A DNA stretch of 64,000 bases from Winogradskyella sp. (GCF_003712105.1 NZ_RHLG01000006.1:19240-83239), one strand, 5' to 3'. Shown: positions 6,912 to 46,900, numbered from the stretch's first letter. Translations and numbers: made by a program. Notes: generated by a model not told the origin, from the sequence alone.

Positions 6912-8540
6912 ATGGCAGAAGTAATTAATATGCCACGACTTAGCGATACCATGGAAGAAGGTACCGTTGCTACATGGCTAAAACAAGTAGGTGATAAGGT
7001 TGAAGAAGGTGATATTTTAGCTGAAATTGAAACTGACAAAGCTACAATGGAGTTCGAGTCTTTTCACGAAGGAACACTACTTCATATTGGTGTGCAAGAA
7101 GGTGAAACAACAAAAGTTGATGCGTTGCTAGCTATTATCGGTGACGAAGGCGAAGACATTTCTGGACTTTTAAATGGAAATGCTTCTGAAATAAAGGAAG
7201 AAGATGTCACTCTGAGCGCAGTCGAAGAGTCTAAAAGTGATTCTGGGTCACTGAGCGAAGTCGAGGTGCCTGAAGGAGTTGTAGTAGTTACTATGCCACG
7301 ACTTAGCGATACTATGGAAGAAGGTACTGTGGCAACATGGTTAAAAAAGGTAGGAGATACTGTAGAAGAAGGCGACATACTCGCTGAAATCGAAACAGAT
7401 AAAGCTACAATGGAGTTTGAATCGTTCAACGCTGGTACTCTGTTGCATGTTGGGCTACAAGAAGGAGATTCTGCTAAAGTAGATGCATTGCTAGCAATCA
7501 TTGGACCTGCTGGTACAGATGTGTCAAATGTGGCAAAAAACTTCAAGGTTGTTGGTGAAGCAAAACCAGAACCTAAAAAAGAAGAGAAAAAAGTTGAGGC
7601 TCCAAAAGCTGCTGAGCCTAAAAAAGAGAGCGTTGCTTCAAGTGCTGCTAAACCTAGTCCAGCACCAGTTTCTAGTAATGGCCGAATTTTTGTTTCTCCA
7701 TTAGCCAAGAAAATGGCAGAGGAAAAGGGAATTAATTTAAATCAAGTTAGTGGCTCTGGAGAAAATGGTAGAATTATAAAACGCGATATAGAAAACTTTA
7801 CACCTGCAGCTGCCGCAACGTCATCAGCTCCAGTTGCCAAATTTGTGCCTTCTGGTCAAGAAGATTTTGATGAGGTTCCAAATAGCAACATGCGTAAAGC
7901 TATTGCTAAAAATTTAGCAAAATCTAAGTTTACTGCACCACATTACTACCTTAACGTAGAGTTCGACATGGATAATGCTATAGCGTTTAGAGCGCAATAC
8001 AATTCATTGCCAGACACTAAGATATCGTATAACGATATGGTTGTTAAAGCATGTGCTTTAGCATTACGTCAGCATCCGCAAGTAAATTCTCGCTGGTTCG
8101 ATGACCATATGCAGTTAAATAATCATGTGCATATTGGTGTTGCAGTTGCAGTGCCTGATGGTTTAGTTGTGCCTGTGGTTAGATTTGCAAATGAGCAAAG
8201 TTTGCCGCAAATTGGTGCAGCTGTAAAGGATTATGCCAAACGAGCTCGTGATAAGAAATTAACATTAGATGAAATGGATGGCAGTACATTTACTATATCT
8301 AACTTAGGTATGTTTGGTATTGAAAGTTTTACATCTATAATTAATCAGCCAAATTCGGCAATTTTATCAGTCGGTGCAATAGTGTCGAAGCCAGTTGTAA
8401 AGAATGGCGTGGTAGTTCCTGGTAATACTATGAAGTTAACCATGGCTTGTGATCACAGAACAGTTGATGGTGCAACAGGAGCACAATTCCTTCAAACATT
8501 AAAAGGATATATTGAAAATCCTGTAACAATGTTAGTGTAA
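6912..8540 (+). CDS. pdhC: Pyruvate dehydrogenase E2 dihydrolipoamide acetyltransferase, two lipoyl domains
   Basis: Two ETDKATME lipoyl motifs, PSBD (SPLAKK...GSGENGRI), catalytic DHRTVDG. Confidence 0.95.
   Translation: MAEVINMPRLSDTMEEGTVATWLKQVGDKVEEGDILAEIETDKATMEFESFHEGTLLHIGVQEGETTKVDALLAIIGDEGEDISGLLNGNASEIKEEDVTLSAVEESKSDSGSLSEVEVPEGVVVVTMPRLSDTMEEGTVATWLKKVGDTVEEGDILAEIETDKATMEFESFNAGTLLHVGLQEGDSAKVDALLAIIGPAGTDVSNVAKNFKVVGEAKPEPKKEEKKVEAPKAAEPKKESVASSAAKPSPAPVSSNGRIFVSPLAKKMAEEKGINLNQVSGSGENGRIIKRDIENFTPAAAATSSAPVAKFVPSGQEDFDEVPNSNMRKAIAKNLAKSKFTAPHYYLNVEFDMDNAIAFRAQYNSLPDTKISYNDMVVKACALALRQHPQVNSRWFDDHMQLNNHVHIGVAVAVPDGLVVPVVRFANEQSLPQIGAAVKDYAKRARDKKLTLDEMDGSTFTISNLGMFGIESFTSIINQPNSAILSVGAIVSKPVVKNGVVVPGNTMKLTMACDHRTVDGATGAQFLQTLKGYIENPVTMLV
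7206..7232 (+). repeat. REP-like hairpin copy 1, in frame in pdhC (GTCA-CTCT-GAGCGCAGTCGA-AGAG-TCT)
   Basis: 26/27 nt identical to the reverse complement of 45129-45155; encodes VTLSAVEES. Confidence 0.85.
7247..7269 (+). repeat. REP-like hairpin copy 2, in frame in pdhC (CACT-GAGCGAAGTCGA-GGTG)
   Basis: Same core as copy 1, direct orientation, 14 nt downstream; encodes SLSEVEV. Confidence 0.8.
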
Positions 8541-8564
8541 AAATAAATTATAACTAGATATAAG

Positions 8565-8598
8565 ACCTGATTTGAAGCATTTCGAATCAGGTTTTTTT
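8565..8598 (+). terminator. Rho-independent terminator after pdhC
   Basis: acctgatttgaa/ttcgaatcaggt 12-bp stem (one G:T pair), GCAT loop, T tract. Confidence 0.8.
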
Positions 8599-8623
8599 AT
8601 CTTTAAGACTTTAAAAAGTAAAA

Positions 8624-9622
8624 ATGAAAAAACACAGTACAGTACTTATAATTTTATGTCTAGTCATTTCTTCTTGTGGTTTAACTACTAAAGGTCAAAA
8701 TGGAGCAAAAGGAAAAGACGGCGAAAATTCTAAAACGATAACGATAACAAAAGATGAGGTTAAAGATATAGTGTCGTATTTGGCTTCAGATGAACTTAAA
8801 GGTAGAAATACTGGCACTGAAGGTATCGAATTAGCCGCAAATTTTATTCAAAAGCAATTTGAAGATAATGGTGTTAAGCCTTTCTTTAAAGGTTTTAGAG
8901 ATGAGTTCAAGTTTAAATCTCGTAAAGATAGTATCACCGGATTTAATGTTGTTGGTTATTTAGAAGGTACTGACGAGAAGCTGAAAAATGAATTTATTGT
9001 TATCGGAGCACATTACGACCATATAGGTTTTGCGAAAAAAGTCGAAAACGATACCATAGCAAATGGTGCAAATGACAATGCGAGTGGTACGGCTGCAGTG
9101 ATGAGTATTGCAAAATATTTTTCAGCTAAAAAGAATAATAAACGTAGCCTGATATTTGCATTATTCTCAGCAGAAGAAATGGGATTGAGAGGCTCTGCAC
9201 ATTTGGCTGAAAAGTTAAAGTCTCAAAATGTTGATTTATACACGATGATAAATTTTGAAATGATAGGTGTGCCTTTTGTAGATAGAGATTACGAAGCCTT
9301 TTTAACGGGTTATGACAAATCTAATTTTGCCGGAAAGTTTAACGAATACTCAGGTTCTAACCTTATCGGATTCTCAGAAGTATCTAAGAAGTACGGCCTA
9401 TTTAAACGTTCAGATAATTTTGCGTTTTATAAATCTTTTGGAGTTCCGAGTCATACTATTTCTTCATGTGACTTAACCAATTTTGACTTTTACCATAAAG
9501 TAGGAGATGAGTCTGATGAAATGAATTATGAATTCATGGCTAATCTTATAAATAAGACAATTCCAGGTATTGAAAAAATAGCAAATACTGCCACAAGAGA
9601 AATTACACTTAATGAAAAGTAA
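8624..9622 (+). CDS. M28 family peptidase, probable lipoprotein
   Basis: Lipobox ISSC; GAHYDH, GANDNASG, AEEMGL and YHKVGD metal-binding motifs. Confidence 0.85.
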   Translation: MKKHSTVLIILCLVISSCGLTTKGQNGAKGKDGENSKTITITKDEVKDIVSYLASDELKGRNTGTEGIELAANFIQKQFEDNGVKPFFKGFRDEFKFKSRKDSITGFNVVGYLEGTDEKLKNEFIVIGAHYDHIGFAKKVENDTIANGANDNASGTAAVMSIAKYFSAKKNNKRSLIFALFSAEEMGLRGSAHLAEKLKSQNVDLYTMINFEMIGVPFVDRDYEAFLTGYDKSNFAGKFNEYSGSNLIGFSEVSKKYGLFKRSDNFAFYKSFGVPSHTISSCDLTNFDFYHKVGDESDEMNYEFMANLINKTIPGIEKIANTATREITLNEK

Positions 9623-10298
9623 GAATATTATAATTACTGGTACAAGTAGAGGTATTGGTTTTGAATTAGTAAAACTATTTCAAGAACAAGGACATCATGT
9701 TTTAGCCTTATCCCGAAATCATAAGCCTATATCAGACTTGAGTTTAACAAATGTAAGTTCTTTTGCTTTCGATTTATCAAAACCAGAAGATTACAGTAAA
9801 GTAGAAGCATTTATCAAGGCTGAATGGCAACACGTTGACGTACTAATTAACAATGCGGGAGTACTGCTAAATAAACCATTTTCTAAAACTACTTTTGAAG
9901 ATTTTTCTAGTATATACCAAACCAATGTTTTTGGTGTTTCCGAGCTAACAAGAGTTGTATTACCTTTTATGAGTAATCATAGCCACGTGGTTACAATAAG
10001 CTCAATGGGCGGCATTCAAGGCAGTATGAAATTTCCAGGTTTAGCTGCTTACAGTTCAAGCAAGGGCGCAGTTATTACACTGACTGAGTTATTAGCCGAA
10101 GAGTATAAAAACTCTGGCCCACAATTTAATGTACTAGCTCTAGGAGCTGTGCAGACAGAAATGCTGGAAGAAGCATTTCCAGATTATAAAGCACCAACTA
10201 CTGCAAAAGAAATGGCAAGCTATATTTTAGACTTTTCTTTAAACGGTAACAAATATTATAACGGAAAAGTACTGCAAGTTTCAAATTCAACGCCTTAA
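9612..10298 (+). CDS. SDR family oxidoreductase
   Basis: TGTSRGIG, NNAG, YSSSK catalytic motif. Confidence 0.9.
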   Translation: MKSKNIIITGTSRGIGFELVKLFQEQGHHVLALSRNHKPISDLSLTNVSSFAFDLSKPEDYSKVEAFIKAEWQHVDVLINNAGVLLNKPFSKTTFEDFSSIYQTNVFGVSELTRVVLPFMSNHSHVVTISSMGGIQGSMKFPGLAAYSSSKGAVITLTELLAEEYKNSGPQFNVLALGAVQTEMLEEAFPDYKAPTTAKEMASYILDFSLNGNKYYNGKVLQVSNSTP

Positions 10299-10943
10299 AT
10301 GTACAAATACAAGTGTGTTATTTTTGATTGTGATGGCGTATTAGTAGATAGTGAGCCAATTGGCAACGAAGTTTTAGTAGAAATGACTAATGAGCTAGGT
10401 GGCAACATTGAATTAGATTTTGCGTACGAACACTTCAAAGGAAATTCAATACAAACGGTTGTCGATCATATTTCAAAATTAGTAAACCACAAGCTTGGTG
10501 AAGCATTTATTTCTGAATATAGAGAGCGTTCCTACAAAGCATTTAAAGAAAAGATAAAACCTGTCACAGGTGTAGAAGATGTAATTAAAAAATTGCAAAT
10601 TCCTTTTTGTGTGGCTTCAAGCGGTCCTATAGAGAAAATAAAACTTAATTTAAATCTTACAGGATTACTACCTTATTTTGAAGACAAAATTTTTAGCTGT
10701 TATACGATACAAAAGTGGAAACCTGAACCAGATATTTTTTTGCTAGCTGCAAAAACTATGGGATTTTTACCTGAAGATTGTTTAGTAATCGAAGATAGTG
10801 AGATAGGTGTGCAAGCGGCAAAAAATGGTGGCTTTAATGTATTTTCTTACACAGAGCACGATTACAATGGTAAATTGGCCAAAGTTTCTCTTAAAACTTT
10901 CGATAAGATGTCAAGTCTACCGGCTCTTTTAACAAATATTTAA
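10299..10943 (+). CDS. HAD family hydrolase (beta-phosphoglucomutase-like)
   Basis: FDCDGVLVDS, KPEPDIF, IEDS motifs. Confidence 0.88.
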   Translation: MYKYKCVIFDCDGVLVDSEPIGNEVLVEMTNELGGNIELDFAYEHFKGNSIQTVVDHISKLVNHKLGEAFISEYRERSYKAFKEKIKPVTGVEDVIKKLQIPFCVASSGPIEKIKLNLNLTGLLPYFEDKIFSCYTIQKWKPEPDIFLLAAKTMGFLPEDCLVIEDSEIGVQAAKNGGFNVFSYTEHDYNGKLAKVSLKTFDKMSSLPALLTNI

Positions 10944-10976
10944 TACTAATTTTTATCTTAGCAAAAAAAGGATTTT

Positions 10977-13900
10977 ATGCTAAGAAAACTACTCAGAAAT
11001 CGCTGGTCTTTTTTATTAATTTTTTGTTTTATAATTCAACGCAATTATTCCCAAACCTTTAATCGTGTTGAGGATATTGTTGGTTTAGGAATTCTTTCAG
11101 AAAATAACGGAGCAGCAGTTGCCGACTATGATGGTGATAATGACCTAGATATTTTTGTGGTTGCTAAATCACCAGATGATCCAGACAGTCCTAAAACGCT
11201 AAGTCGTCTGTTTAGAAATAATAATGATGGCTCTTTTACAGATGTAACTGAGGCAGCTGGGTTTACAGACTTGTTATTACCAGATGAAGCAGGTGAAGAT
11301 TTTGATGGTCTTGATGGCCAAAAAAGTGGTGCATCTTGGGGTGACTATAATAATGATGGCTTCCCGGATTTATTTTTAACCTATTCTTTTAAAGTTCAAT
11401 TGTTCAGAAACCTTGGTAATGGAACTTTTGTTGACTTAACAGGCATCGCTGGGTTTGACGATTTAAACAGCTGTCGAAATATGGGAGCCACTTGGTTTGA
11501 TTATAATAATGATGGCTTCTTAGATATATACATTAATGATTGGAATACATGTGGTAGTAATCAATTATACAGAAATAATGGCAACAATACGTTTACCAAT
11601 GTAACGGTGTCTTCAGGTATTCAATCTTTGCCAAATTTAGCAACATATTCGGCATTGCCTTTCGATTTTAATTCAGATGATGATATGGATTTGTTTGTGG
11701 CCAACTACTTAAGTCAAACCAATGATTTATTTATTAATAACGGTGGTACTTCATTTTCAAATCAGGCTTCAACTTATGGTGTAAATACAACAACAGGAGA
11801 AAACGGAATTTCAGTAAGTGATTATAATAGCGATGGCTTCTTTGACATATTTGTAACAGGAGTTGATGGTAATGCACTATATACAAACAACGGTGATAAC
11901 ACATTTACGGAAAACGCAAGTGCTCTTGGTCTTAATAATACGCTATGGTCAAAAGGTTCATGTTTTTCGGATTTTGATTTAGATGGAGATGAAGATCTCT
12001 ATATTGTTAATGGTTTTGAAACTGATACCCGTGGAGCAGAAGCTAATGTTTACTATAGAAATTTAAGTGCTCAAGGTCAAACTGCTTTTGAAAATGCTTC
12101 AGCATCTTTGGGCTTAGACTCACAATCAGTCAGCGTTGAATCTATTCATTTTGATTATGACAATGATGGAGATATTGACATTTTTGTTACCAATAGTGAT
12201 GGAACATCATTCCTGTACGAAAATACGTTGTTAAATTTTGATGATGTTACAGCTGCTAAAAATTGGTTTAAATTAAATTTAGTTGGTACAACATCAAATA
12301 GAAATGCGATTGGTGCTATTGTAAGATTAACTACTTCTTCAGGTACAATTATTAGATATAATTATGGTGTTGGATTTTTAGGACAAAGTTTGCAGGCACT
12401 TCATTTTGGCTTGGATAATGATACCACGATTACATCTCTAGAAATTAACTGGCCATCAGGCGCTGTTGAAAACTACAATTCTAATTTATCTATAAATAGT
12501 ACAATGCAAGCTTTAGAAGGTGTTGGTTTGGTAAATCAAAATATATTGCCAAGTCAAAAAGTGTATGGATGTACAGATACAGTTTCATGTACTTACAATC
12601 CTGCAGCTACACTTGATGACGGTTCTTGTACCTACCTGCCTTCTCAAAGTATTATTGGAAATACCGATACCGGATTTTATAGTACAGAAACCTATACGTA
12701 TGCCTTGGCAAATGGCTCCACTGCAGATTGGCATGTAGAAGGCGGCGAAATTTTAAGTGGTCAAGGTACTAATACCATTACTGTATTGTGGGAAGTTGAA
12801 GCAGAAGGTTCGGTTTCTGTTACTGAAATGAGTGATTTATGTTCTAGCTTAAGTACAAGTCTAAATGTTAATATTTCGGCTGAAGATTTATCAGAAAATG
12901 TATCAATAGCACGGCTGTGGAATGAAACTCTATTAAGTGCTATACGTGGAGATTTTGCTAGACCTACAGTTCATGCAAGAAATTTATTTCATACAAGTTT
13001 TGCTATGTTTGATATTTGGGCAATATACAATAGTAACAAAGCAAACCCATATCTCTTAGGTAAAGACTTAAACGGTTTTTCATCAACTTTAGAACCCTTT
13101 ACACCTCAAGAGTCTATAAGTGAATCAACTAAAAAAGCAATTAGCTATGCCATGTATAGATTGCTTGCGTATCGTTTTCAAAACTCGCCAGGAGCAGAAG
13201 CTAATCAAAGACGTATAGATTTAATTATGGAAAGTCTTGGTTATGATACCGCCTTTACGTCATTGTTTTACGAAGATGGTGATGCAGCAGCTTTTGGAAA
13301 TTATGTTGCGCAAACAGTTATCGATTACGGATTGCAAGATGGTTCTCGCGAAAGCACAGGCTTTGATAACGCTTATTACGAGCCAGTTAACCAAGCCTAT
13401 AATCTTGAGCTACCTAATAATCCGCCAATGGTTGACCCAAATAGATGGCAGCCACTTGGCTTAGACACATTTATAGATCAAGGCGGAAATGTCGTTGATG
13501 GTAATGTTCCTGAATTCTTAAGTCCAGAATGGGGAAATGTATTTGGTTTTGCTTTAAAGGAAGAAGATGTAACAACGTATAATAGAGACGGAGATACCTA
13601 TCGTGTTTACCATGACCCAGCTGCGCCACCGTATATCAATACTTCTGTTGAAGATGAAATGAGTGAGCAGTACAAATGGGGCTTTTCAATGGTTTCAGTA
13701 TGGCAGTCTCATTTAGATCCTACTGATGGTGTAATGTGGGATATCTCTCCTGGAGCAATAGGAAATACAGATATCGCTGATTTTCCAACAGATTTTGCCG
13801 ATTATCCATCCTTTTACAATTTTATTGATGGAGGAGATATAGGTACAGGACATGTCGTTAATCCAAAAACAGCGTTACCATACCAACCAAATATGGTGCC

Positions 13901-15011
13901 ACGCGGTGATTATGCAAGAGTTTTAGCAGAGTTTTGGGCAGATGGGCCAGATTCTGAAACACCACCAGGGCATTGGTTTACGATACTTAATTATGTGAAT
14001 GACCATCCAGAATTTGAAAAACGTTTTGAAGGTGAAGGCGAAGAGTTAAATGGATTAGAATGGGATGTTAAGGCCTATTTTATATTAGGTGGTGGAATGC
14101 ACGATTCAGCTATAGCTGCATGGAGTGTTAAAGGCTGGTACGACTATGTAAGACCAATTTCAGCTATAAGATATATGGGAGATGAGCAAGGGCAAAGTAC
14201 AGACCCAAACTTACCTAATTATAGTGTTACTGGCTTTCAACTTATGCCTGGATATATAGAACTTGTAGAAGCAGGTGATCCATTAGCGGGCTTTTTTGGA
14301 CAGAATATTGGAAAAATAAAACTCTTTACATGGCGTGGTCACGATTTTATTAACGACACAGAAACGGATGTGGCAGGAGTTGGATGGATTTTAGCCGAAG
14401 ATTGGTATCCTTATCAACGTCCTACATTCGTTACACCGCCATTTGCAGGTTATGTTTCAGGGCATTCAACATATTCTAGAGCAGCATCAGAAATCTTAAC
14501 TAAACTTACTGGAGATCCATTTTTCCCAGGAGGTTTAGGAGAATTTGTTGCTAGACAGAATGAGTTTTTAGTTTTTGAAGATGGTCCTTCAGTAGACGTT
14601 GTATTACAATGGGCGACATATAGAGATGCATCAGACCAAACTAGTCTTTCACGTATTTGGGGTGGAATTCATCCACCAGCAGATGATATTCCTGGAAGAT
14701 TTATAGGTCAAAAAGTGGCAGATGATACCTTTGAGTTTGCACTACCTTATTTTGAGGCTACTCAAAACCCAGCGGTGGTCATAGAACAGATTGTATATCC
14801 GAACCCTACTAATGATCAGCAATTTTTTATTTCTAATACATTGCCTGGAGATAATATCGAGATTTTTGATATTAGTGGAAGAAAGATTGATATTATCCAA
14901 TCTCAGTACGATGATTTAAACCGTATTACTCTAATACGTCTAAACAACGCGACAACGGGTATTTATATTTTGCGTGTTAACGATAATCCTATTAAGGTTG
15001 TAGTTAAATAA
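10977..15011 (+). CDS. T9SS cargo: FG-GAP repeats + ASPIC/UnbV + Cys-rich linker + vanadium haloperoxidase/PAP2-type domain + CTD
   Basis: Seven D[YF]xxDxxxD[LI][FY] repeats, SNRNAIGA...LHFGL...INWPSG, K-X6-RP / SGH / SR-X5-H motifs, YPNP...GIYILRV CTD. Confidence 0.8.
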   Translation: MLRKLLRNRWSFLLIFCFIIQRNYSQTFNRVEDIVGLGILSENNGAAVADYDGDNDLDIFVVAKSPDDPDSPKTLSRLFRNNNDGSFTDVTEAAGFTDLLLPDEAGEDFDGLDGQKSGASWGDYNNDGFPDLFLTYSFKVQLFRNLGNGTFVDLTGIAGFDDLNSCRNMGATWFDYNNDGFLDIYINDWNTCGSNQLYRNNGNNTFTNVTVSSGIQSLPNLATYSALPFDFNSDDDMDLFVANYLSQTNDLFINNGGTSFSNQASTYGVNTTTGENGISVSDYNSDGFFDIFVTGVDGNALYTNNGDNTFTENASALGLNNTLWSKGSCFSDFDLDGDEDLYIVNGFETDTRGAEANVYYRNLSAQGQTAFENASASLGLDSQSVSVESIHFDYDNDGDIDIFVTNSDGTSFLYENTLLNFDDVTAAKNWFKLNLVGTTSNRNAIGAIVRLTTSSGTIIRYNYGVGFLGQSLQALHFGLDNDTTITSLEINWPSGAVENYNSNLSINSTMQALEGVGLVNQNILPSQKVYGCTDTVSCTYNPAATLDDGSCTYLPSQSIIGNTDTGFYSTETYTYALANGSTADWHVEGGEILSGQGTNTITVLWEVEAEGSVSVTEMSDLCSSLSTSLNVNISAEDLSENVSIARLWNETLLSAIRGDFARPTVHARNLFHTSFAMFDIWAIYNSNKANPYLLGKDLNGFSSTLEPFTPQESISESTKKAISYAMYRLLAYRFQNSPGAEANQRRIDLIMESLGYDTAFTSLFYEDGDAAAFGNYVAQTVIDYGLQDGSRESTGFDNAYYEPVNQAYNLELPNNPPMVDPNRWQPLGLDTFIDQGGNVVDGNVPEFLSPEWGNVFGFALKEEDVTTYNRDGDTYRVYHDPAAPPYINTSVEDEMSEQYKWGFSMVSVWQSHLDPTDGVMWDISPGAIGNTDIADFPTDFADYPSFYNFIDGGDIGTGHVVNPKTALPYQPNMVPRGDYARVLAEFWADGPDSETPPGHWFTILNYVNDHPEFEKRFEGEGEELNGLEWDVKAYFILGGGMHDSAIAAWSVKGWYDYVRPISAIRYMGDEQGQSTDPNLPNYSVTGFQLMPGYIELVEAGDPLAGFFGQNIGKIKLFTWRGHDFINDTETDVAGVGWILAEDWYPYQRPTFVTPPFAGYVSGHSTYSRAASEILTKLTGDPFFPGGLGEFVARQNEFLVFEDGPSVDVVLQWATYRDASDQTSLSRIWGGIHPPADDIPGRFIGQKVADDTFEFALPYFEATQNPAVVIEQIVYPNPTNDQQFFISNTLPGDNIEIFDISGRKIDIIQSQYDDLNRITLIRLNNATTGIYILRVNDNPIKVVVK

Positions 15012-15041
15012 CCACTGCGTGATTTTTACAATATCAAATTG

Positions 15042-15638: not shown

Positions 15639-15674
15639 CCAACACCTTATGCAAAGTCTAAAGATATTTTAGAT

Positions 15675-16757: not shown

Positions 16758-16759
16758 CT

Positions 16760-35811: not shown

Positions 35812-37854
35812 TTATTTTATCAACCCAGCCCGTCTTAATAGTGCTTCAGGTTTAGGTTCTTGACCTCTAAACTTTTTGTATAAGGTCATTGGGTTTTCTG
35901 TACCACCTTGAGATAATACATAAGCTTTAAATTTATTAGCAACAGTTTTATTAAAAATACCTTGGTCTTTAAAATATTCAAAAGCATCAGCATCCAAAAC
36001 TTCGGCCCATTTGTAACTGTAATACCCTGAAGAATAACCACCTTGAAAAATATGCGCAAAAGCTGTACTCATACAATTTTCAGCTACATCAGGATATAAA
36101 CTTGTTGAGCCAAAAGCTTTTTTCTCAAACTCTTTTACAGATACTTCTCTAGAATGCTTGCGCTGAGCGTAGTCGAAGTGCCACGCCATATCTAACATTC
36201 CAAAACTAAGTTGGCGCAAGGTTTGCATACCTTCATGGAATGTGGCCGAAGCTTTTATTTTTTCAATTAATTCCATCGGAATAACATCGCCAGTTTTGTA
36301 ATGTGTTGCAAATAACTTGAGTGTTTCTTCTTCGTAGCACCAATTTTCTAATATTTGACTAGGTAACTCAACAAAATCCCAAAATACACTTGTGCCAGAT
36401 AAACTTGGATATGTTGTATTTGCAAGCATACCATGTAAAGCATGACCAAACTCGTGAAAAAGTGTGGTAACTTCATTAAAGGTTAGTAAAGAAGGTTTGC
36501 TTTTTGTAGGCTTTGTAAAGTTGCAAACGATAGATACATGAGGCCTATGATTCTGACCGTCTTTAATCATTTGAGGTTTAAAGGATGTCATCCATGCACC
36601 ATTTCGTTTTCCAGCTCTTGGAAAAAAGTCGGCATAAAAAATCGATACTAATTCATTTTCAGCATCCACAACTTTGTAGGTCATTACATCTTCATGATAT
36701 TTGTCTATAGTATCAATGTCTTCAAACCGTAACCCAAATAATTTTTCAGCTACAGTAAATGCGCCGTTAATTACATTTTCTAACTTGAAATAAGGTTTTA
36801 ACTGTTCATCATCAAGGCTAAAAAGTTTCTGCTTTAATTTTTCAGAATAGTAAGCCGAGTCCCATTTTTGGAGTTGGTTAATACCATCTAAATCCTTTGC
36901 AAAAGCTTCTAAATTTTCAAATTCTTTTTGTGCTGCAGGTTTGGCTTTTTCTAAAAGCTCGCCCAAAAAGTTATTTACCTTTTCTGGCGTTTCTGCCATG
37001 CGCTCTTCTAACACAAAATCGGCGTGTGTTTTATAGCCCAAAAGTTGTGCGCGTTGCGCTCTAAGATTTGCAATTCGTAGTACAATATCTTGATTGTCTA
37101 ATTCGTCACCTTTAAACCCTTTACTGCCAAAGGCTTTTGATAATCGTTCTCTTAATTTACGATTATCAGCGTAAGTCATAAACGGAATATAGCTTGGATA
37201 ATCTAAGGTAATTAACCAGCCATTTTTCCCTTTGCTTTCAGCCATCTGCTTTGCAGCTTCTTTTGCACCTTCAGGTAAGCCAGACACATCTTCTTCTTTG
37301 GTAAGTAACATTTCAAAGGCATTCGTTTCTGCCAAAATGTGTTCGCCAAATTTTAGCTTCAATTGGCTTAATTCTTTGTCAATAGCACGAAGTTGCTCTT
37401 TTTTATCCTCCGGCAGATTTGCGCCATTTCTGGCAAAACCTTTATACTTTTTGTCTAGTAGTGTGGTTTGCTCGGTAGATAAGCCTAACCCTGATTTAGA
37501 ATCGTAAACTGCTTTAACGCGCTTAAATAAATCTTTATTTAGCGTAATATCATTGCTAAACTCAGACAATAATGGTGATACCTCTTGTGCTATTTTCTGT
37601 ATCTCATCATTAGTTTCGGCAGAGTTTAAATTGAAAAATATACTCGATATTCTATCTAATTCTTCACCAGAATAATCCAAAGCTTCAATAGTATTTTGAA
37701 ATGTTGGAACTTCGGCGTTTTGTACAATAGCATCAATCTCTGATTTTGCTTTTTCAATAGCTGTTTTAAAAGCAGGTAAAAAATCGTCGTTTTTTAGTTT
37801 TGAAAACGGTGCTGTATTATATGCTGTATTGAAGTATTGATTAAGAATGTTCAT
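35812..37854 (-). CDS. dcp: M3 family peptidyl-dipeptidase Dcp
   Basis: KRNGAWM, TLFHEFGHALH, DFVELPSQ, YSYKWAEVLDAD. Confidence 0.9.
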   Translation of the reverse strand: MNILNQYFNTAYNTAPFSKLKNDDFLPAFKTAIEKAKSEIDAIVQNAEVPTFQNTIEALDYSGEELDRISSIFFNLNSAETNDEIQKIAQEVSPLLSEFSNDITLNKDLFKRVKAVYDSKSGLGLSTEQTTLLDKKYKGFARNGANLPEDKKEQLRAIDKELSQLKLKFGEHILAETNAFEMLLTKEEDVSGLPEGAKEAAKQMAESKGKNGWLITLDYPSYIPFMTYADNRKLRERLSKAFGSKGFKGDELDNQDIVLRIANLRAQRAQLLGYKTHADFVLEERMAETPEKVNNFLGELLEKAKPAAQKEFENLEAFAKDLDGINQLQKWDSAYYSEKLKQKLFSLDDEQLKPYFKLENVINGAFTVAEKLFGLRFEDIDTIDKYHEDVMTYKVVDAENELVSIFYADFFPRAGKRNGAWMTSFKPQMIKDGQNHRPHVSIVCNFTKPTKSKPSLLTFNEVTTLFHEFGHALHGMLANTTYPSLSGTSVFWDFVELPSQILENWCYEEETLKLFATHYKTGDVIPMELIEKIKASATFHEGMQTLRQLSFGMLDMAWHFDYAQRKHSREVSVKEFEKKAFGSTSLYPDVAENCMSTAFAHIFQGGYSSGYYSYKWAEVLDADAFEYFKDQGIFNKTVANKFKAYVLSQGGTENPMTLYKKFRGQEPKPEALLRRAGLIK
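36160..36181 (+). repeat. REP-like hairpin copy 3, antisense within dcp (CGCT-GAGCGTAGTCGA-AGTG)
   Basis: Same core; read on the gene strand as HFDYAQR. Confidence 0.8.
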
Positions 37855-37892
37855 TGATAGTTAATATTAAAATGAATTTGTATCAGTTGAAA

Positions 37893-38735: not shown

Positions 38736-38747
38736 TTTAAATCTTAA

Positions 38748-39227
38748 TTACAGGTCTTTTGCAGAATCAATAACCTTTGCTTTTAAACCTTCTTTGTAGA
38801 CTTGAACTTTGTCTAAAATGCATTTGTCGCTACTTCCTAAAATTTGTGCAGCTAATATTCCCGCATTTTTAGCACCATTTAGCGCAACTGTTGCAACAGG
38901 AACACCGCCAGGCATTTGTAAAATAGACAGTACAGAATCCCAACCATCGATAGAATTACTACTTTTTACAGGAACCCCAATTACAGGTAAAGGTGATAAT
39001 GATGCAACCATACCTGGTAAATGAGCAGCGCCACCAGCCCCAGCAATTATGACTTTAATATCTCTGTTATGGGCATTTTTACCGTAATCAAAAAGTTTAT
39101 CAGGTGTCCGATGTGCAGAAACAATATCTACGTCTACTTCAATATCAAAACCTTTTAAAATATCTATCGCGTCTTGCATTACTGGCAAGTCGCTTTTGCT
39201 ACCCATGATTACACCAACTTTACTCAT
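38748..39227 (-). CDS. purE: N5-CAIR mutase
   Basis: MGSKSD, SAHRTP, AGGAAHLPG, PGGVPVAT. Confidence 0.97.
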   Translation of the reverse strand: MSKVGVIMGSKSDLPVMQDAIDILKGFDIEVDVDIVSAHRTPDKLFDYGKNAHNRDIKVIIAGAGGAAHLPGMVASLSPLPVIGVPVKSSNSIDGWDSVLSILQMPGGVPVATVALNGAKNAGILAAQILGSSDKCILDKVQVYKEGLKAKVIDSAKDL

Positions 39228-39229
39228 AC

Positions 39230-40384
39230 TTATTTGCTTATTACTTTAATGGTTTGTTTTACATTTTCTGCTATTTCCCTAGCTTTATTAATATCCTTAT
39301 CTACGATAGTAACATGGCCCATTTTTCGGAATGGACGTGTTTGTTTTTTGCCATAAATATGTGGCGTAACACCATCCATAGCCATGATGTCTTCTATATT
39401 TTTATACAGCACATCTCCAGTATGGTTTTCTGCACCAACTAAATTAACCATAACACCAGAAACTTTACTATCGGTATTCCCTAGAGGTAAGTCTAGTATT
39501 GCTCTAAGATGTTGTTCAAACTGGCACGTGTAACTTCCTTCAATGCTATAATGACCAGAATTATGTGGTCTAGGAGCGACCTCATTAACTAATATCTCAT
39601 CATCTTGAGTTAAAAACATTTCAACTGCTAATAATCCAACATGTTGGAAAGCCTCTGCAACTTTAAGTGCAACTGCTTCCGCTTTATCTGTTATCTTTTG
39701 TGGTAAACGTGCTGGGCAAAGTACATATTCTACTTGATTTGCTTCAGGATGAAACTCCATTTCAACAGTTGGATATGTCTTTATTTCTCCAGAAACACTT
39801 CTAGCTACAATAACTGCTAATTCATTTTTAAAAGGAATCAATTCCTCAGCAATGCACTCTACATTAGGAAGTTGTTTTAAATCTGAAAACTCACGAACAA
39901 CCTTTACACCTTGCCCATCATAACCAAAACGAGCACTTTTCCATACAAATGGGATATGTAAGCCACCATTATCAATAGCATCTTTAATCTCAGAGCTGTA
40001 AGCAAATCTCGAGAATGGTGCTGTTGGGATATTATGATCCGTGTAAAATAGTTTTTGAGTTGCTTTATTCTGAATTGTTCTTAATGTCTTCGATGCTGGA
40101 TATACTGTTTTACCTTCGTTTTCAAGCTGTTCGAGAGCATCGACATTTACATTTTCAATTTCGAAAGTTAAAACATCAACACTTCTACCAAATTCTATAA
40201 CGGTATCGTAATCCAAAATATCACCTTGCACAAACTCATTACATGCTAGTCTTGAAGGCGCATCAGCACTCGAATCTATAACCTTGGTGCCTATATCGTA
40301 CTTTCGAGCAACATAAAGCATCATTTTGCCAAGCTGACCACCACCTAAAATTCCGAGTTTAAAATCTGAAGAGAAATAGCTCAT
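39230..40384 (-). CDS. purK: N5-CAIR synthetase (ATP-grasp)
   Basis: LGGGQLGKM, GYDGQG, NEVAPRPHNSGH, RKMGHVT. Confidence 0.96.
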   Translation of the reverse strand: MSYFSSDFKLGILGGGQLGKMMLYVARKYDIGTKVIDSSADAPSRLACNEFVQGDILDYDTVIEFGRSVDVLTFEIENVNVDALEQLENEGKTVYPASKTLRTIQNKATQKLFYTDHNIPTAPFSRFAYSSEIKDAIDNGGLHIPFVWKSARFGYDGQGVKVVREFSDLKQLPNVECIAEELIPFKNELAVIVARSVSGEIKTYPTVEMEFHPEANQVEYVLCPARLPQKITDKAEAVALKVAEAFQHVGLLAVEMFLTQDDEILVNEVAPRPHNSGHYSIEGSYTCQFEQHLRAILDLPLGNTDSKVSGVMVNLVGAENHTGDVLYKNIEDIMAMDGVTPHIYGKKQTRPFRKMGHVTIVDKDINKAREIAENVKQTIKVISK

Positions 40385-40436
40385 ATTTATTTTCCACGAA
40401 AGTGGAAATCATTAATGTTAAACCTATTTTGATGAA

Positions 40437-40444
40437 CAAAAATA
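40437..40444 (-). promoter_or_regulatory. -7 box TATTTTTG upstream of purK
   Basis: CAAAAATA on the + strand. Confidence 0.4.
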
Positions 40445-40508
40445 CACTAATTATGGAAGAATAATCTAAAATTAGAAACCAAAAATCGGCTAACCTTAAT
40501 CATTTGAT

Positions 40509-40516
40509 TATCTTTG
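40509..40516 (+). promoter_or_regulatory. -7 box TATCTTTG upstream of hpt-adk
   Basis: TAnnTTTG, 26 nt before the GTG start. Confidence 0.5.
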
Positions 40517-40541
40517 GGCTTTTAAAATTTAACACAGAAAA

Positions 40542-41648
40542 GTGAAGCTTCAAGATTTACACTTTAAGCCATTTATTTCAGAGGAAAAAATTCTGGATAC
40601 TGTTCAGCAAATGGTGGATACTATTGCAGCAGATTTAAAAGACGAGATGCCGATATTTGTGGGTATACTCAATGGGTCTTTTATGTTTGTTAGTGATTTT
40701 GTAAAAAAGTACCCGCATCCTTGCGAAGTCACTTTTATAAAATTGGCATCTTATGATGGCGTTAAGTCTACTGAAGACATTCAACGTCTTATAGGTCTTA
40801 CACAGGATTTAACAGGCAGAACAGTTGTGATACTCGAAGATATTATCGATTCGGGTAATACACTTGCAGAGGTGCATAGAATATTTAAAAATGAAAATGT
40901 AAAGCAATTACTTATTGCTACATTGTTTTACAAGCCAGATGCTTATAAAAAAGACTTTAAGCTTCATTATGTAGGTATGGAGATTCCTAATAAATTCATT
41001 GTAGGCTATGGATTAGATTACAATGGTTTAGGAAGAGATATACCTTCTGTCTACCAATTAAAAACTACACAGCACATGACGAATATTGTATTATTTGGAC
41101 CTCCAGGTTCAGGAAAAGGTACACAAGCAAATCTTTTAAAAAATAAATACAATTTAGTACACATATCTACAGGAGATGTGTTTAGATACAATATAAAAAA
41201 CGAAACAGCTTTAGGAACACTAGCAAAATCTTATATAGATAAAGGCGAGCTAGTTCCTGATGAGGTTACCATTGATATGCTTAATGCTGAGGTTGAAAAA
41301 AATGCCGATGCTAAAGGATTTATTTTTGATGGTTTCCCAAGAACGAATGCTCAAGCTGAGGCTTTAGATGTTTTGATGAGCACAAAAGATTCTCAGATAA
41401 ATACTATGATTGAGCTTGAAGTGGAAGATGAAATTTTAGTTGAACGTTTAGTAGAGCGAGGAAAAACGAGTGGAAGACCAGATGATGCTGATGAAGGTGT
41501 AATCAGAAATCGCTTAAAAGTTTATTATGCCGAAACTGCTGTTGTTGCAGATTATTACGCAGCTCAAACTAAGCATATTGTAGTAAATGGAGAAGGTGAG
41601 ATTCAGGAGATAACTGAGCGATTAGGTAAAGTTATCGATACACTTTAG
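40542..41648 (+). CDS. hpt-adk: Hypoxanthine phosphoribosyltransferase - adenylate kinase fusion
   Basis: N-terminal half ILEDIIDSGNT and VGYGLDY; C-terminal half from Met at 41076 has GPPGSGKGT, HISTGD, DGFPRT; no stop between the halves. Confidence 0.9.
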   Translation: MKLQDLHFKPFISEEKILDTVQQMVDTIAADLKDEMPIFVGILNGSFMFVSDFVKKYPHPCEVTFIKLASYDGVKSTEDIQRLIGLTQDLTGRTVVILEDIIDSGNTLAEVHRIFKNENVKQLLIATLFYKPDAYKKDFKLHYVGMEIPNKFIVGYGLDYNGLGRDIPSVYQLKTTQHMTNIVLFGPPGSGKGTQANLLKNKYNLVHISTGDVFRYNIKNETALGTLAKSYIDKGELVPDEVTIDMLNAEVEKNADAKGFIFDGFPRTNAQAEALDVLMSTKDSQINTMIELEVEDEILVERLVERGKTSGRPDDADEGVIRNRLKVYYAETAVVADYYAAQTKHIVVNGEGEIQEITERLGKVIDTL

Positions 41649-41652
41649 AGTA

Positions 41653-41727
41653 GTCATTCCTGCGACAGTAGGAACCTAAATTAGTAATAACTTCAAATTA
41701 TGAGATTCCTGCCTTCGCAGGAATGAC
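41653..41727. repeat. Inverted doublet of GTCA-TTCCTGC-GAAG-GCAGGAA-TC REP-like hairpins
   Basis: 41653-41676 and the reverse complement of 41704-41727 match at 20/24 nt; 27-nt AT-rich spacer. Confidence 0.85.
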
Positions 41728-41732
41728 AACAC

Positions 41733-42731
41733 ATGACTGAAGGAAATTTTGTTGATTATGTAAAAATGCATGTAGCCTCTGGTAACGGAGGTAAAGGTTC
41801 TGCGCATTTACATCGCGAAAAATATATTGCAAAAGGTGGTCCTGATGGTGGTGACGGTGGTCGTGGTGGTCATGTTATTATTCGAGGTAATCCAAACCTG
41901 TGGACTTTACTTCACCTTAAATTTAAGAGACATATAAAAGCGGGTCACGGAGCTCATGGTAGCTCAGGCAGAAGCACTGGAGCTGATGGAGAAGACGCGG
42001 TAATTGAAGTGCCGTTAGGAACCGTTGTAAGAGATACTGAAACCAATGCTATTCTTTTTGAAATTACAGAAGAAGAACAAGAAAAAATTGTAGCCGAAGG
42101 TGGAAAAGGCGGTCGTGGCAATTGGCATTTCAAAAGTTCTACAAATCAAACTCCTCGATATGCACAACCGGGTATTCCATTAGAAGAAAAAAATATAACT
42201 TTAGAGTTAAAAGTTTTAGCAGATGTTGGTTTGGTAGGTTTTCCTAATGCTGGTAAGTCTACACTACTTTCTGTTATGACATCTGCAAAACCTAAGATTG
42301 CAGATTATGAGTTTACAACACTAAAGCCAAATTTAGGTATTGTAAAGTATCGGGACTTTCAGTCGTTTGTAATGGCAGATATCCCTGGGATTATTGAAGG
42401 TGCTGCCGAAGGTAAAGGGCTTGGCTATTATTTTTTAAGGCATATTGAACGCAACTCTATTTTATTATTTTTAGTACCAGCTGATGCCGATGACATAGCA
42501 AAACAATACGAAATATTGTTAGATGAGCTAAGACGATACAATCCCGAAATGTTAGATAAAGAACGCTTTTTATTAGTATCAAAGTCAGACCTATTAGACG
42601 ATGAATTAAAAGCTGAACTAAAAGCAGAACTTGATGAAAGTTTAAAGGTAGACTATATGTTTATGTCTTCGGCTGCACATCAAGGCATTCAAGAATTAAA
42701 AGATAAACTCTGGAAAATTTTAAATGACTAA
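41733..42731 (+). CDS. obgE: GTPase ObgE/CgtA
   Basis: [31 protein letters not shown]. Confidence 0.97.
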
Positions 42732-42871
42732 AGTCTTTTGAGAGTATTTTTAAAGACTATTGCTTAAGAGATTATTGGCAGACGTACCAGAGAATTAGAC
42801 CATTACAATCCCTATTTTCAAGTTAAAGTTTTAGATTCAGTTTCAAATTTTAGTATCTTTAAAAGAAAAAG

Positions 42872-43387
42872 ATGAAACGCTCTGGATTACTTATATTGCT
42901 GATGTTACTGACTTCTTGCGGTGCATATGTCAACTACGACTTTGAGAAAAATACTGATTTTTCAGAATATAAAACCTACAATTACTTTACAGACATGAAT
43001 ACAGGTTTTAGTCAGTTAGATAACAAACGAATCATGGCAGCAATTGATAATAAACTTAAATCTTTGGGTTTTGAAAAATCTGAAAATCCAAGTTTTAATA
43101 TAGATATTCAATCAGCTGAGGTAACAAACACTTCAAATAGTAATGTTGGTGTTGGTATTGGAGGTACAGGAAGAAATGTTGGTGGTGGCGTTTCTATTGG
43201 AATTCCTGTTGGCGCTTCAAGAACCACAAGAGAAATCAGCTTTGAGTTTGTTGATGACTCTAAGAGTGGTGTTTTTTGGCAAGCAATTACTAAAATTTCT
43301 TACATAGGCAATACTCCTGAGAAACGTGAAGCTAATTTTGCCAAACTCATAGAAAAAGTTTTTAGCAAATATCCACCACAGAAATAA
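42872..43387 (+). CDS. DUF4136-like lipoprotein
   Basis: LLTSC lipobox, DFSEYKTY, Gly-rich GVGIGG...GVSIGIP segment. Confidence 0.75.
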   Translation: MKRSGLLILLMLLTSCGAYVNYDFEKNTDFSEYKTYNYFTDMNTGFSQLDNKRIMAAIDNKLKSLGFEKSENPSFNIDIQSAEVTNTSNSNVGVGIGGTGRNVGGGVSIGIPVGASRTTREISFEFVDDSKSGVFWQAITKISYIGNTPEKREANFAKLIEKVFSKYPPQK

Positions 43388-43420
43388 AAAAGAGGCTTTT
43401 TAAAAGCCTCTTTTTTATTT
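43382..43420. terminator. Bidirectional terminator between convergent genes
   Basis: 19-bp perfect inverted repeat aaataaaaaagaggctttt-t-aaaagcctcttttttattt. Confidence 0.85.
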
Positions 43421-43435
43421 GAGAATTATTTTGAA

Positions 43436-43807
43436 TTATTTAAGTAATGCGCTGTATTTGTCTTTATAGCCATATAGTACAGCAATATTAAGTATTAATA
43501 ATACAGCAGCTCCGCCAATACCACCTGGGTCTAAAACTGCATGAAATAATACAGCGTTTACAGAAATACTCATTAGTATTAATGTAAGTAAAGCACCATA
43601 TTTATTCAAAATTAGAGCTAATCCTGCTACTATTTCAACTACTCCGACTAAAACTAAGGTTTTAGAATTAGCAAGTGCGCCAAAATAAGCTCCAGCGTCA
43701 GGATTTAGTTCTGGCATAGGTAAAAAATTTGCAAATTTATTTACTCCAAATACTAGAATAAATACTCCAAGCAAGATTCTTAGAACCATAAATACTTTTG
43801 AATTCAT
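43436..43807 (-). CDS. DoxX-family membrane protein
   Basis: LRILLG..ILVFGVNKF, EIVAGLALIL, four TM helices. Confidence 0.75.
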   Translation of the reverse strand: MNSKVFMVLRILLGVFILVFGVNKFANFLPMPELNPDAGAYFGALANSKTLVLVGVVEIVAGLALILNKYGALLTLILMSISVNAVLFHAVLDPGGIGGAAVLLILNIAVLYGYKDKYSALLK

Positions 43808-43907
43808 AATGTAAAATTTTATTAGTTAGTAATCTGTAAGTTACAAAATATTTTTTTCGACCTTACTCACATGTGGTCGGAATACACTTACTAAACTAAC
43901 ACAGTCT

Positions 43908-46900
43908 TTAATTTACATTTACTCTTATCCCTTCAGAATGGCTACTAAATTCTGGCGCGTACATAGACTGTATTGTAGTAATTCCATTGCTCATGTCCCC
44001 TGCATTATTTACCCTAAGGTCATATTCAAAAATATAAATCCCTTTAGGTAAATAGTCTATAAAAAAGTTTGTTGCAGCATCCTTAGTGCTTTCGTAATAG
44101 CCTAAGCCATCTTGCCATTTGTATTGAGACAATACGTTTACAGGTTCAAATCCTGCTGCTCGCATATCTTTAAGATGGAGGAATTCCATATCACGATCAC
44201 TACGAAGCTCAATACGAACTCTCACCAAATCACCAACTTTAAGTTGCGTATCGGTATTTATTTCTGCTAGTTCTTCACCACGGTCAGTGTTCGTTTTTTT
44301 GAATAATTTTTTCTGCAATTGCAAAGGTGTTTTAGCAGAAGTGATCTTATCTAGACCTTCAAAGTACTGCCAATATAATACACCCCAAGCAATACCTTCA
44401 CCTTTTTTGGTCAATGTCACTTGAGCTTGTTCCTGAGATATTTCGTTAGCATTCCAGCTGGTTTTATAATAACCTGTGCCAGCTTCAATGTTTACATTAT
44501 CAAGTTTTGAAGGTGAAATAGACTTACCTCCAACTTTAACATCAACAGCATCTGTAATACTCAACCATTCACTACCCTGAAGTAATAATGCATAAACAGC
44601 TTCGGCTGTAGCTTTTGTAGTTTCCCATTTATTGGTTTGCTTATTTTTCAACAACCATATTTTTAAGTTATCAACGGTTTCTATATTATTCTCAATTTCA
44701 GAAAACGCTTCTATTAAAAGTGATTGAGTTTCAATAGGCGCTTGATGCCAATAATAAGATGCAGTATTAGCTTTCCAATACATGCCTAATTCTTCGGAGG
44801 TAATACTCGTTTCTTTTAGAGACCTTAATATTTTGCTAGCCACTGTATGTTCTTCAGCTCGATGCATTGTTAACGCCATCAATCCTTTTGCATATAACGA
44901 GCGACTTAACCAATAGTCTTCGATTTGACCTTTATAATAATCCATAATTCGACCAACTTCTTTTGAAGCTTTAATTTCTGGATAGAAACTACGCACATAC
45001 ATATAATGTAGTTGTGTGTAAGACAAATGGTCTTTACTTAAATCAACTTTTGGATTGTAGCGTTTTAAATCTTTATATTCTTTTACAAATTGCTTGTCTA
45101 AATATCGAATAGCTTTTTCAATCATCTGAGACTCTTCGACTGCGCTCAGAGAGACATTTAATTGTTTCAAATGTCCAAACCCACCAACGATATGTTGGGT
45201 TATATATCTATTATCACGTCCACCATTAAACCATGGCCATGCGCCAGATGAATGTTGATTGTTTTTTAACTTACCAATAGAAGCTTGTAACTCGCTATTC
45301 ATCTTATTTAAATCGAATAACAATGCTATGCGTTTTTTCTGTTCGGTTTCAGATTGTGCATCACGTAACCAAGGTGTTTCTTGAATTAATAATGATTTTA
45401 ATTCTTCGTTTTTTTCTAAGTTTGAAAGCAACGCGTCTGTCGACTTCCATTGGTTAAAAACTGCTTCAATTTTTGGACTAGACTTAGTAATATGTTGTGC
45501 TAATGCATTAGCATAATAACGACTGAATGTTTGCTCATTACACTGGTATGGATATTCCATTAAATATGGTAATGCTTGTACGGCATACCATGCCGGATTA
45601 GAAGTAATCTCTAAAGTAAGCTTATGATGTTTTAAAGTTGAATTTGGGTCGCTGATCGAAGTCGAAGCGAGCTTATCTAATGTAAATGTCTTCGTTTGAT
45701 TACTGCGTACCCACATTGGTAAGGTTTCAGTAACTAACATTCGGTTAGATAATACAGGTAATACATTTTGCTCACCATCGCTAAAATCTTCAGATTGTGC
45801 AATGACTTTATATTGCACGGCTTGGATATTATCTGGAATTTTAAGTGTCCAATTGACTTGTGTATTTCCTTTTGCATCTACAGAAAAATCTTGGACACTG
45901 AGCGTAGTCGAAGTGTTGTCGTTTCGACCTCGCTCAACGACCAATAATTCTTCGGATATCTCTTTTCCAGTTATGGCATCTTCTAATACTAGCTGCGCTT
46001 TTCCGGTTAAGGCTTTATCACTAAGATTTGCAATTTTTGTACTTATAGATATGGCATCACCTTCACGGAGAAAACGTGGTGCATTTGGGATTACCATCAA
46101 TTCTTTTTGTGTTACTGCTTCATATTCTGAAACAGTACTTTCTAGAGATTTGGTATGTGCAAGCAATTGCAATTTCCATTTGGTTAATGCTTCGGGAGCT
46201 TTAAAATTAAAGCTCACATTACCATTTGCATCTGTTTGTAACTGAGGAAAGAAAAAGGCCGTTTCTTGAAGATTTTTACGGATTTGAATAAGTGTGTTTG
46301 CCTTAGACTTGCCAGGACTATTTTCACCCTTGGAAATTTTTAATCCAGGAACTTGCCCTGAAAATGATTCTGTAACATTAGCATTTATATTAAATTCAGA
46401 TTCTTCAGGATCAGCTAAAGCTGCTAACTCATTGCTTGGAGCGGATGATCTTGATTTTTTATCAATACCAGAACCAATTATTACCACTTCATCTAGGGAT
46501 TCGTCTTCTTCAGCTAACGAATATGCTAATTGATCATATCTGCGAATGTTATCTCCAAAGTATAACCCAAACCAATTTAGCCTATCAAAAGTCTGCCCAT
46601 TATAACGCGGTATATTTTCAAAATTATTATGGCGTCTAAAATTAATTACGCCAAAACTATTCCTGTTATTTTTATAATGCTTCGAGCTATAGTTAGGTTT
46701 GTAAATTGGATTAAATGACCAGTTGTGCGGTTTAAACTCATTTAAAGAGGCATCGTACATACTTGCCAGAAGCTCAGCGGTTACTTTATCACCTTTAGGG
46801 CCTTTAACTTTAAATGACCAAGTCTCATCTTGTCCAGGTTGTAATTTATCTCTAAACGTGCTGGTTTCGATTTCTAAATCTGTTTTAGGATATGGCACTC

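Follow-up and report, generated by a model that had tools for sequence, protein, structure and literature searches.

A short hairpin module with a fixed core and free stems, probably the repeat partner of small GIY-YIG nuclease genes, persists in frame within protein genes of Winogradskyella

Introduction

Small GIY-YIG proteins of the cd10448 type (Ssn, with SsnA of Neisseria meningitidis) are site-specific nucleases for single-stranded DNA, and the ssn genes are flanked by hairpin repeats, designated NTS or SRM, of which hundreds of copies are scattered over the genome (Chenal et al., Nat Commun 2025, PMC11893778). Palindromes tagged with CGTC or TGTC, featuring stems of 8-9 bp and loops of 4-5 nt, occur in five phyla including Bacteroidetes; some of them reside in frame in genes, and no enzyme has been assigned to them (Di Nocera et al. 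2013, PMC3733652). Here, we analyze a hairpin module that is present in seven copies within three protein-coding genes on a 64-kb stretch of DNA from Winogradskyella sp., termed the window in the following (positions 19240-83239 of contig C4 in a 3.15-Mb assembly with 34% G+C and 10 contigs). A preliminary description of the window had proposed that these copies are REP/REPIN elements mobilized by RAYT enzymes, i.e., HUH Y1 transposases, and that they add short peptides to the encoded proteins. Rickettsia palindromic elements (RPEs) are 100-150 bp long and not known from outside Rickettsia, and we know of no partner nuclease for them. A full-text literature search for the core sequences of the module returned only unrelated primer matches and no paper naming the core.

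Results

A hairpin module with a fixed core and a free stem

The pattern GAKCGNRGTCGA matches the window exactly seven times, compared with a mean of 0.01 in dinucleotide-preserving shuffles. All seven matches are flanked by complementary 4-nt segments, one of which includes a G-T pair, and all seven reside within long stop-free open reading frames (ORFs), where they fall into four classes of frame and orientation and affect three genes, exactly as first described. Genome-wide, the exact core GAGCG-N-AGTCGA occurs in 46 copies, and 43 of these have at least 3.5 of the 4 flanking positions paired. When one or two mismatches in the core were tolerated and paired flanks were demanded, about 25 near-exact copies were added, resulting in a family of approximately 71 copies (about 65-70 modules). 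Each module spans 24-30 nt and consists of a 5' tag, a complementary stem of 4-5 bp with free sequence and the 12-nt core, which is nearly invariant apart from its sixth base. Three subtypes are defined by their tags: type A with TGTCA (19 copies), type B with T[T/G]GGT (about 20) and type C with GC[C/T]TG (about 6). The TGTCA-tagged copies mostly carry the loop GCA and a 3' TCT.

Across 63 genomic copies, each of the four stem pairs is paired in 98-100% of cases and realized by 3-5 different pair types. The stem covariation score is 0.79; shuffles reach 0.27, and sliding the partner column gives no more than 0.21. Note that one-mismatch copies were chosen partly by pairing, such that the 43 of 46 exact copies provide the cleanest pairing figure. 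The proposal of a dispersed, REP-like hairpin family with stem covariation beyond the reach of protein selection is thereby borne out. Chance occurrence (seven matches versus 0.01 expected) and convergence at the protein level, where the peptides differ by frame and the retained codons are rare, were both rejected on the basis of shuffles, frames and codon use. DNA uptake sequences are likewise short, conserved, often intragenic and sometimes paired, but approximately 70 copies per 3.15 Mb are far too few for such a function and uptake sequences do not have covarying stems. We regard the probability that any of these three explanations applies as negligible.

Nearest-neighbor DNA folding yielded only -1 to -2 kcal/mol for single modules, no better than shuffled sequences, and a very stable C(GNA)G mini-hairpin, as originally envisaged, could not be confirmed. 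The sole structures that fold better than shuffles as single-stranded DNA are a variant with GATCG and the doublet present at site 1 of the alpha-2-macroglobulin gene described further below (-12.9 kcal/mol, z -3.1). As single copies fold no better than shuffles, stem pairing must be maintained by something beyond plain stability, and most simply this would be a protein that recognizes a presented core. The invariant bases C4, G5, A7 and G8 would allow a C(GNA)G mini-loop; since its C...G positions never vary, covariation speaks neither for nor against it.

Small GIY-YIG nuclease genes are bracketed by inverted module copies

A partner for the module emerged when we looked for genes bracketed by inverted copies. 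On contig C9, an intact ORF for 107 amino acids with a GIY-YIG domain (C9:220649-220930) is framed by type-A copies in inverted orientation, 220600(+) on one side and 220955(-) on the other. A type-B doublet directly follows a second GIY-YIG gene, C3:88865-89152, and a type-B copy follows a weak GIY-YIG match at C2:235440. With about one module copy per 45 kb, the presence of an adjoining module at three of the five small GIY-YIG genes of the genome cannot be attributed to chance. Among 30 loci for GIY-YIG homologues fetched from relatives, the motif is found at most about 60 nt from the gene in 12 cases and on both sides of it in 10, always with the (+) copy upstream and the (-) copy downstream. 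Tag type and nuclease clade go together. YYGGT-GGCT/GACT-GAGCGTAGTCGA accompanies the orthologues of the C3 gene (76-81% identity), TGTCA-CACT/GGCT-GAGCGCAGTCGA a clade with 53% identity, and TGTCT-GGTC or TGTCA-CCTC, with C-G as the closing pair, a clade with 42-46% identity, while sister cores of the same architecture, GAGCYTGTCGA and GAGCGATAGTCGA, occur next to the genes of further clades. Module and nuclease gene thus form a partnership with clade-specific tags. Genomes of the genus that encode a close homologue of the nuclease contain a median of 35 copies, those without such a homologue a median of 5 (Mann-Whitney p 0.0009, phylogeny ignored).

The best solved structural relatives of the C3 protein are the UPF0213 proteins BH0048 (1zg2, E 9e-16) and EF2693 (1ywl), and a comparison with NCBIfam did not assign the nucleases to a specific family. 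Proteins of the UPF0213/YhbQ type are widespread, with solved structures, though to our knowledge no function is assigned to them; a literature search on UPF0213/YhbQ/COG2827 in connection with repeats returned nothing relevant. The genome harbors two additional genes of the Ssn-like WYVYI..N..G.LYIG type, C6:47815-48039 and C6:50718-50942, one of them with an internal TGA. Their products do not match the UPF0213 structures, and the genes are flanked by a second hairpin, ATTCC-N3-GAARG-N3'-GGAAT, that resembles the published NTS. Two pairs of nuclease and hairpin thus coexist in one and the same genome. These comparisons point to a position of the module's nuclease in a putative sister branch to the cd10448 Ssn proteins. 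The published SRM pattern HGTCWYN(0-2)YYVSBRH... did not match any of the 30 loci, but this pattern is narrow and missed the NTS-like hairpins as well. We consider it probable that the approximately 65-70 modules of 24-30 nt belong, as the partnering repeat, to small GIY-YIG genes with a single domain that are of the UPF0213/YhbQ (bacterial Slx1-like) type, with a cut-and-copy process as the putative means by which the modules spread.

Further observations concern the C3 locus. The GIY-YIG ORF is stop-free through the downstream doublet and into the following, GHMP-kinase-like gene, resulting in an open frame of 428 amino acids (C3:88865-90148), and the same open fusion is present in two of four orthologous loci (L038, L041). 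The cassette resides between genes that, judged by eye and not by family search, resemble those for HMG-CoA reductase and a GHMP kinase.

The attribution to RAYT enzymes, by contrast, did not hold. REP/REPIN elements are short tagged palindromes that are enriched between genes and frequently form inverted doublets, all of which applies here, and REPs located in frame are known (PMC3733652). However, a search for Y1 transposases (PF01797) had no match in the 99.7%-complete genome, while the same search was positive in 6 of 14 control genomes. Some of 60 relatives do carry Y1 genes, but several genomes with 26-65 module copies have none or a weak match; in ten congeners in this range either no Y1 gene was found or only a weak match in a frame of about 500 amino acids. 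Within the genus, the presence of Y1 genes is not associated with motif number (rank test, p 0.16), and the motif is absent from the 1.5-kb flanks of six Y1 loci from relatives. Neither a cognate Y1 HUH gene flanked by the repeats nor the 5' GTAG tag of REP elements was found. Mobilization by RAYT is therefore highly improbable, and the small GIY-YIG nuclease takes its place as the partner.

Placement between and within genes

Although ORFs of at least 100 amino acids cover 93% of the genome, 41 of the 71 copies are located outside any of them. Intergenic positions are strongly overrepresented among the copies, and the statement that every clear copy is intragenic, which is correct for the window, is peculiar to it and does not apply genome-wide. 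About 20 copies (approximately 29%), including the seven in the window, reside in frame within real genes, a count that leaves out short or start-proximal ORFs and matches with two mismatches. The frames used are sense phase 2 (n=9), antisense phase 0 (n=6-7), sense phase 0 (n=4-5) and antisense phase 1 (n=1); sense phase 1 is blocked by TGA/TAG, and the arginine-rich antisense phase 2 is not used. In the real genes, about 13 copies are in sense and about 7 in antisense orientation (18 and 12, respectively, in the raw ORF count). The tag strand is the locally G-rich strand for 42 of 63 copies (binomial p 0.011), a bias that is confounded with gene orientation.

These orientations also bear on the idea that the module acts as a structured RNA element in transcripts, be it a regulatory hairpin, a terminator or a protein-binding site. 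Stem covariation is the classic sign of such elements, but the module occurs in both orientations relative to mRNA and doublets carry both strands. Moreover, the window matched no family in an Rfam scan run with gathering thresholds, there is no T-run, and the consistent partner is a gene of a DNase family. A function in RNA thus appears highly improbable.

An ORF for 247 amino acids at C2:235783-236523, which by eye resembles a uracil-DNA glycosylase gene, contains three in-frame copies (TERSRS, AERSRS, NERSRS) within 72 nt and is itself bracketed by copies at 235740(+) and 236570(-).

In-gene copies persist as short peptides in loops and linkers

The first gene affected in the window encodes a 2-oxoacid dehydrogenase E2 acyltransferase of 542 amino acids with two lipoyl domains (pdhC). 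The linker between these domains contains a type-A module at 7205..7232 (+, core at 7214), TGTCA-CTCT-GAGCGCAGTCGA-AGAG-TCT, with the peptide VTLSAVEES, and a type-B module at 7244..7270 (+, core at 7253), TGGGT-CACT-GAGCGAAGTCGA-GGTG-CC, with the peptide GSLSEVEV. Both are read in sense phase 2 (LSAVE/LSEVE). The linker is hypervariable, and several species share the type-A copy in states that range from intact to decayed. At one orthologous locus (L013), the stem is CTCC/GGAG instead of CTCT/AGAG, a two-sided change at the cost of a leucine to proline replacement. As a separate observation, the pdhC linkers of congeners at the loci L010, L014, L015, L023 and L027 contain other recurring peptides (SDAIPEGEDT..., ISDVDF...) at the same position, which look like other module families or relics.

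In the gene for an M3 family peptidase of 680 amino acids (Dcp), a type-C module lies in antisense orientation at 36155..36180 (+, core at 36165). It has the structure TGCTTG-CGCT-GAGCGTAGTCGA-AGTG and is read in antisense phase 1 (FDYAQ) as FDYAQRK. Among 30 orthologues from the genus, only the one studied here has this copy, which replaces 12-15 nt of a length-variable loop with a net gain of 3-4 codons.

The remaining four copies are located in a gene for a bacterial alpha-2-macroglobulin (A2M) of 2048 amino acids. Site 1 is occupied by a doublet. Its first half is a type-B module in antisense orientation at 45891..45915 (+, core at 45900), TTGGA-CACT-GAGCGTAGTCGA-AGTG, with the peptide TSTTLSVQ, and its second half a type-B module in sense orientation at 45920..45944 (-, core at 45924(-)), TTGGT-CGTT-GAGCGAGGTCGA-AACG, with the peptide LVVERGRN in sense phase 0 (ERGRN). 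The doublet amounts to an insertion of 11 amino acids relative to most orthologues of the genus. In close relatives, this position is taken by just one copy, which may point either way, and in other species by other modules. Site 2 consists of an antisense type-B module at 45644..45669 (+, core at 45654), TTGGGT-CGCT-GATCGAAGTCGA-AGCG, with the peptide ASTSISDP, and shares antisense phase 0 (STTLS/STSIS) with the first half of the doublet. An intact type-B copy is present at this site in 4 of 30 orthologues from the genus. According to our reading of the DNA, an older, decayed type-B copy (TSTTLSHH), which apparently persists in many orthologues, has the site 2 copy nested in its core. The Dcp copy and these two A2M sites are lineage-specific indels. 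The initial view that the repeat adds short peptides to proteins is supported.

Site 3 is a type-A module at 45126..45156 (-, core at 45136(-)), TGTCT-CTCT-GAGCGCAGTCGA-AGAG-TCTCAG, with the peptide VSLSAVEESQ. A module or relic is present at the same codons in most of 30 congeners, with stems CTCT/AGAG, GCCT/AGGY or CATC/GATG; in some species the place is taken by GAGCGACAGCGA, a sister core, or by a long hairpin resembling NTS, and some show plain decay. In 30 other genera, intact modules recur with the stems CGTC/GACG and CCCT/AGGG, while many sequences are unrecognizable. In total, a module or relic is found in about a third of the family genera sampled, and the length of the loop is nearly constant across the 30 genera whether or not a module can be recognized. 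Insertion at this site is suggested by homology to the module family. The codons AGC and GTC, which account for 9.9% of serine and 7.6% of valine codons in this genome, are used by 10 of the 13 genus orthologues with an S-x-V-E peptide. The preliminary description had counted identical peptides with scrambled synonymous sites in distant relatives as evidence against its proposal. The opposite was observed, as several genera keep the rare codons together with paired but different stems. It is for these reasons that the element at site 3 must have been kept or renewed at the level of DNA. Copies of the module thus reside in stop-free frames in protein loops or linkers and persist as inserts of 8-11 amino acids, some of them across genera.

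At this same A2M position, differing module families occupy one codon position in the orthologues L068, L069, L076, L077, L084, L094 and L096, namely the GAGCGACAGCGA core, the long NTS-like TTCC...GGAA hairpin and antisense tandem copies of type B. The site at 45126-45156 seems to be re-used or overwritten.

Doublets, nesting and turnover

Seven pairs of copies are arranged as (+) followed by (-) at distances of 24-47 nt and thus resemble REPINs; one pair has the reverse order. Such doublets contain no gene between the inverted copies. At five loci (C3:75681, C6:53943, C6:57636, C6:138622, C9:426965), the same composite was found, in which a 24-nt type-B unit, TGGT-CACT-GAGCGAAGTCGA-AGTG, interrupts a type-A copy precisely at the junction of GAGCG and CAGTCGA. 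A triple nest is present at C9:184360, and, as we read the DNA, type-C copies are mostly guests in the core of another copy. Head-to-tail arrays with a period of 24 nt, a multiple of three, were also noticed (G013:C1:3981695-3981780 in a congener, C2:235930/235954 in the genome studied here and L038:1448/1472).

Across 37 genomes of the genus, the copy number of a 14-mer varies from 0 to 65, and modules have been gained and lost between species. The 12-nt core was matched in 192 of 301 sampled genomes of the phylum. Several dozen of these 301 genomes, from many families, contain at least 10 and up to 134 core copies, compared with 0-4 for a reversed-pattern control. The family is a phylum-wide repeat family in Bacteroidota.

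In principle, the modules could persist not as selfish DNA but because they serve the host as programmed sites of single-strand cleavage or recombination that regulate transformation, repair or replication of the genes that they flank or reside in, as proposed for NTS and SsnA in Neisseria. Such a role is compatible with the nuclease partnership and differs in the reason why copies persist. It would be in line with the Ssn precedent, with the conservation of the core across the phylum and with the resident A2M copy that keeps core and pairing across genera. On the other hand, copy numbers drop to zero in some congeners, same-site copies decay freely in many lineages, and no common functional class was seen among host or neighbor genes. 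We therefore judge a host-serving role to be unlikely, albeit clearly less so than a RAYT or RNA origin.

Discussion

By analogy with Ssn and NTS, the nuclease may recognize the folded core on single-stranded DNA and cut there. Action on the lagging-strand template would fit the modest excess of tags on the G-rich strand. GIY-YIG enzymes do not join DNA, and spread and renewal of the modules would hence need copying in the course of host repair, whereby a break would be mended with a module from another locus in a homing-like manner. Such a break-and-copy process would spread modules, put guests into the middle of host cores and, where a module is resident, overwrite its stem jointly with its core, leaving hairpins perfect and rare codons in place within coding sequence. 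It would thereby account for the core-center guests as well as for the complete exchange of stems at a single site. Alternatively, stems could have changed stepwise by compensatory mutation under selection for a host function.

Several points weigh against a nuclease partnership with break-and-copy renewal. The proposals on cleavage, on its strand specificity and on the position of the cut are extrapolated from Ssn, which probably represents another branch of the superfamily, and, as GIY-YIG enzymes cut but do not join DNA, the copying step would call for a further, putative mechanism. Single modules are predicted to be only marginally stable as hairpins, and the orientation bias towards the G-rich strand is modest besides being confounded with gene orientation. 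The rank test on copy numbers ignores phylogeny, and the congeners G005, G017 and G026 contain 26-42 copies although no close homologue of the nuclease was found in them. Finally, a clean empty site 3 in A2M was not encountered in 60 orthologues (30 congeners and 30 other genera).

A bolder version of the nuclease partnership would make UPF0213/YhbQ nucleases the dedicated enzymes of phylum-wide 25-nt modules, whose renewal by break-and-copy edits protein loops while the frame survives. Cutting and rewriting would then recur at the modules that reside in essential genes and in large surface-related ones, with stems swapped, guests nested and peptides exchanged. We put this forward tentatively, as a possibility that is at present rather doubtful.

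The nuclease partnership has consequences in several respects. For the UPF0213/YhbQ proteins, a cognate DNA module is a direct candidate substrate. The association of GIY-YIG enzymes with hairpins is suggested to be broader than Ssn and to include hairpins with a fixed loop and free stems, the modules of which can colonize coding sequence. The in-gene copies represent a natural experiment in which the same codons carry perfect but different stems, or visible decay, across species. They set maintenance at the DNA level apart from selection on the protein and can reveal the way in which the repeats are renewed. In the annotation of Bacteroidota genomes, numerous unusual short peptides (LSAVE, STTLS, ERSRS) as well as ORFs that are spurious or fused are accounted for by these modules.

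Comparison with known systems

Among the described systems, RPEs share a single behavior with the module, i.e., the persistence of repeats in frame in functional protein genes; units of 24-30 nt fall short of an in-frame element of 100-150 bp. The CGTC-tagged palindromes resemble the module in the TGTC tag, which here is confined to type A, in their occurrence in Bacteroidetes and in the existence of in-frame copies, but have a stem of 8-9 bp instead of a 4-5 bp stem with a 12-nt core. REP/REPIN-RAYT systems (REPtrons) share the short tagged palindromes, inverted doublets, enrichment between genes and an enzyme gene that lies next to copies of the cognate repeat. The enzyme here is a GIY-YIG and not an HUH Y1 protein, the tag is not GTAG, and free stems are combined with a fixed loop.

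The likeness to Ssn and NTS extends further. In both cases, a single-domain GIY-YIG gene for about 100 amino acids is bracketed by inverted copies of a tagged, genome-dispersed hairpin, and different nuclease clades have different cognate hairpins; in addition, the SRM consensus begins with HGTCW, to which TGTCA, the tag of type A, conforms. The partner described here is nevertheless nearest to UPF0213 structures, unlike the genome's own Ssn-like genes. A free stem of 4-5 bp with a fixed 12-nt core contrasts with the conserved stem of 7-8 bp and the 5-nt loop of NTS, and about 29% of copies are intragenic compared with 2% for NTS. Copies are nested here, and while enzymology is available for Ssn, the present system is known from sequence. 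It thus departs from Ssn/NTS in the design of its module, in being unusually well tolerated inside genes and probably in the branch of its nuclease. The arrangement of module(+), gene and module(-) is the Bacteroidota counterpart of REP-RAYT and NTS/SRM-Ssn, with a different hairpin and probably a different branch of nuclease.

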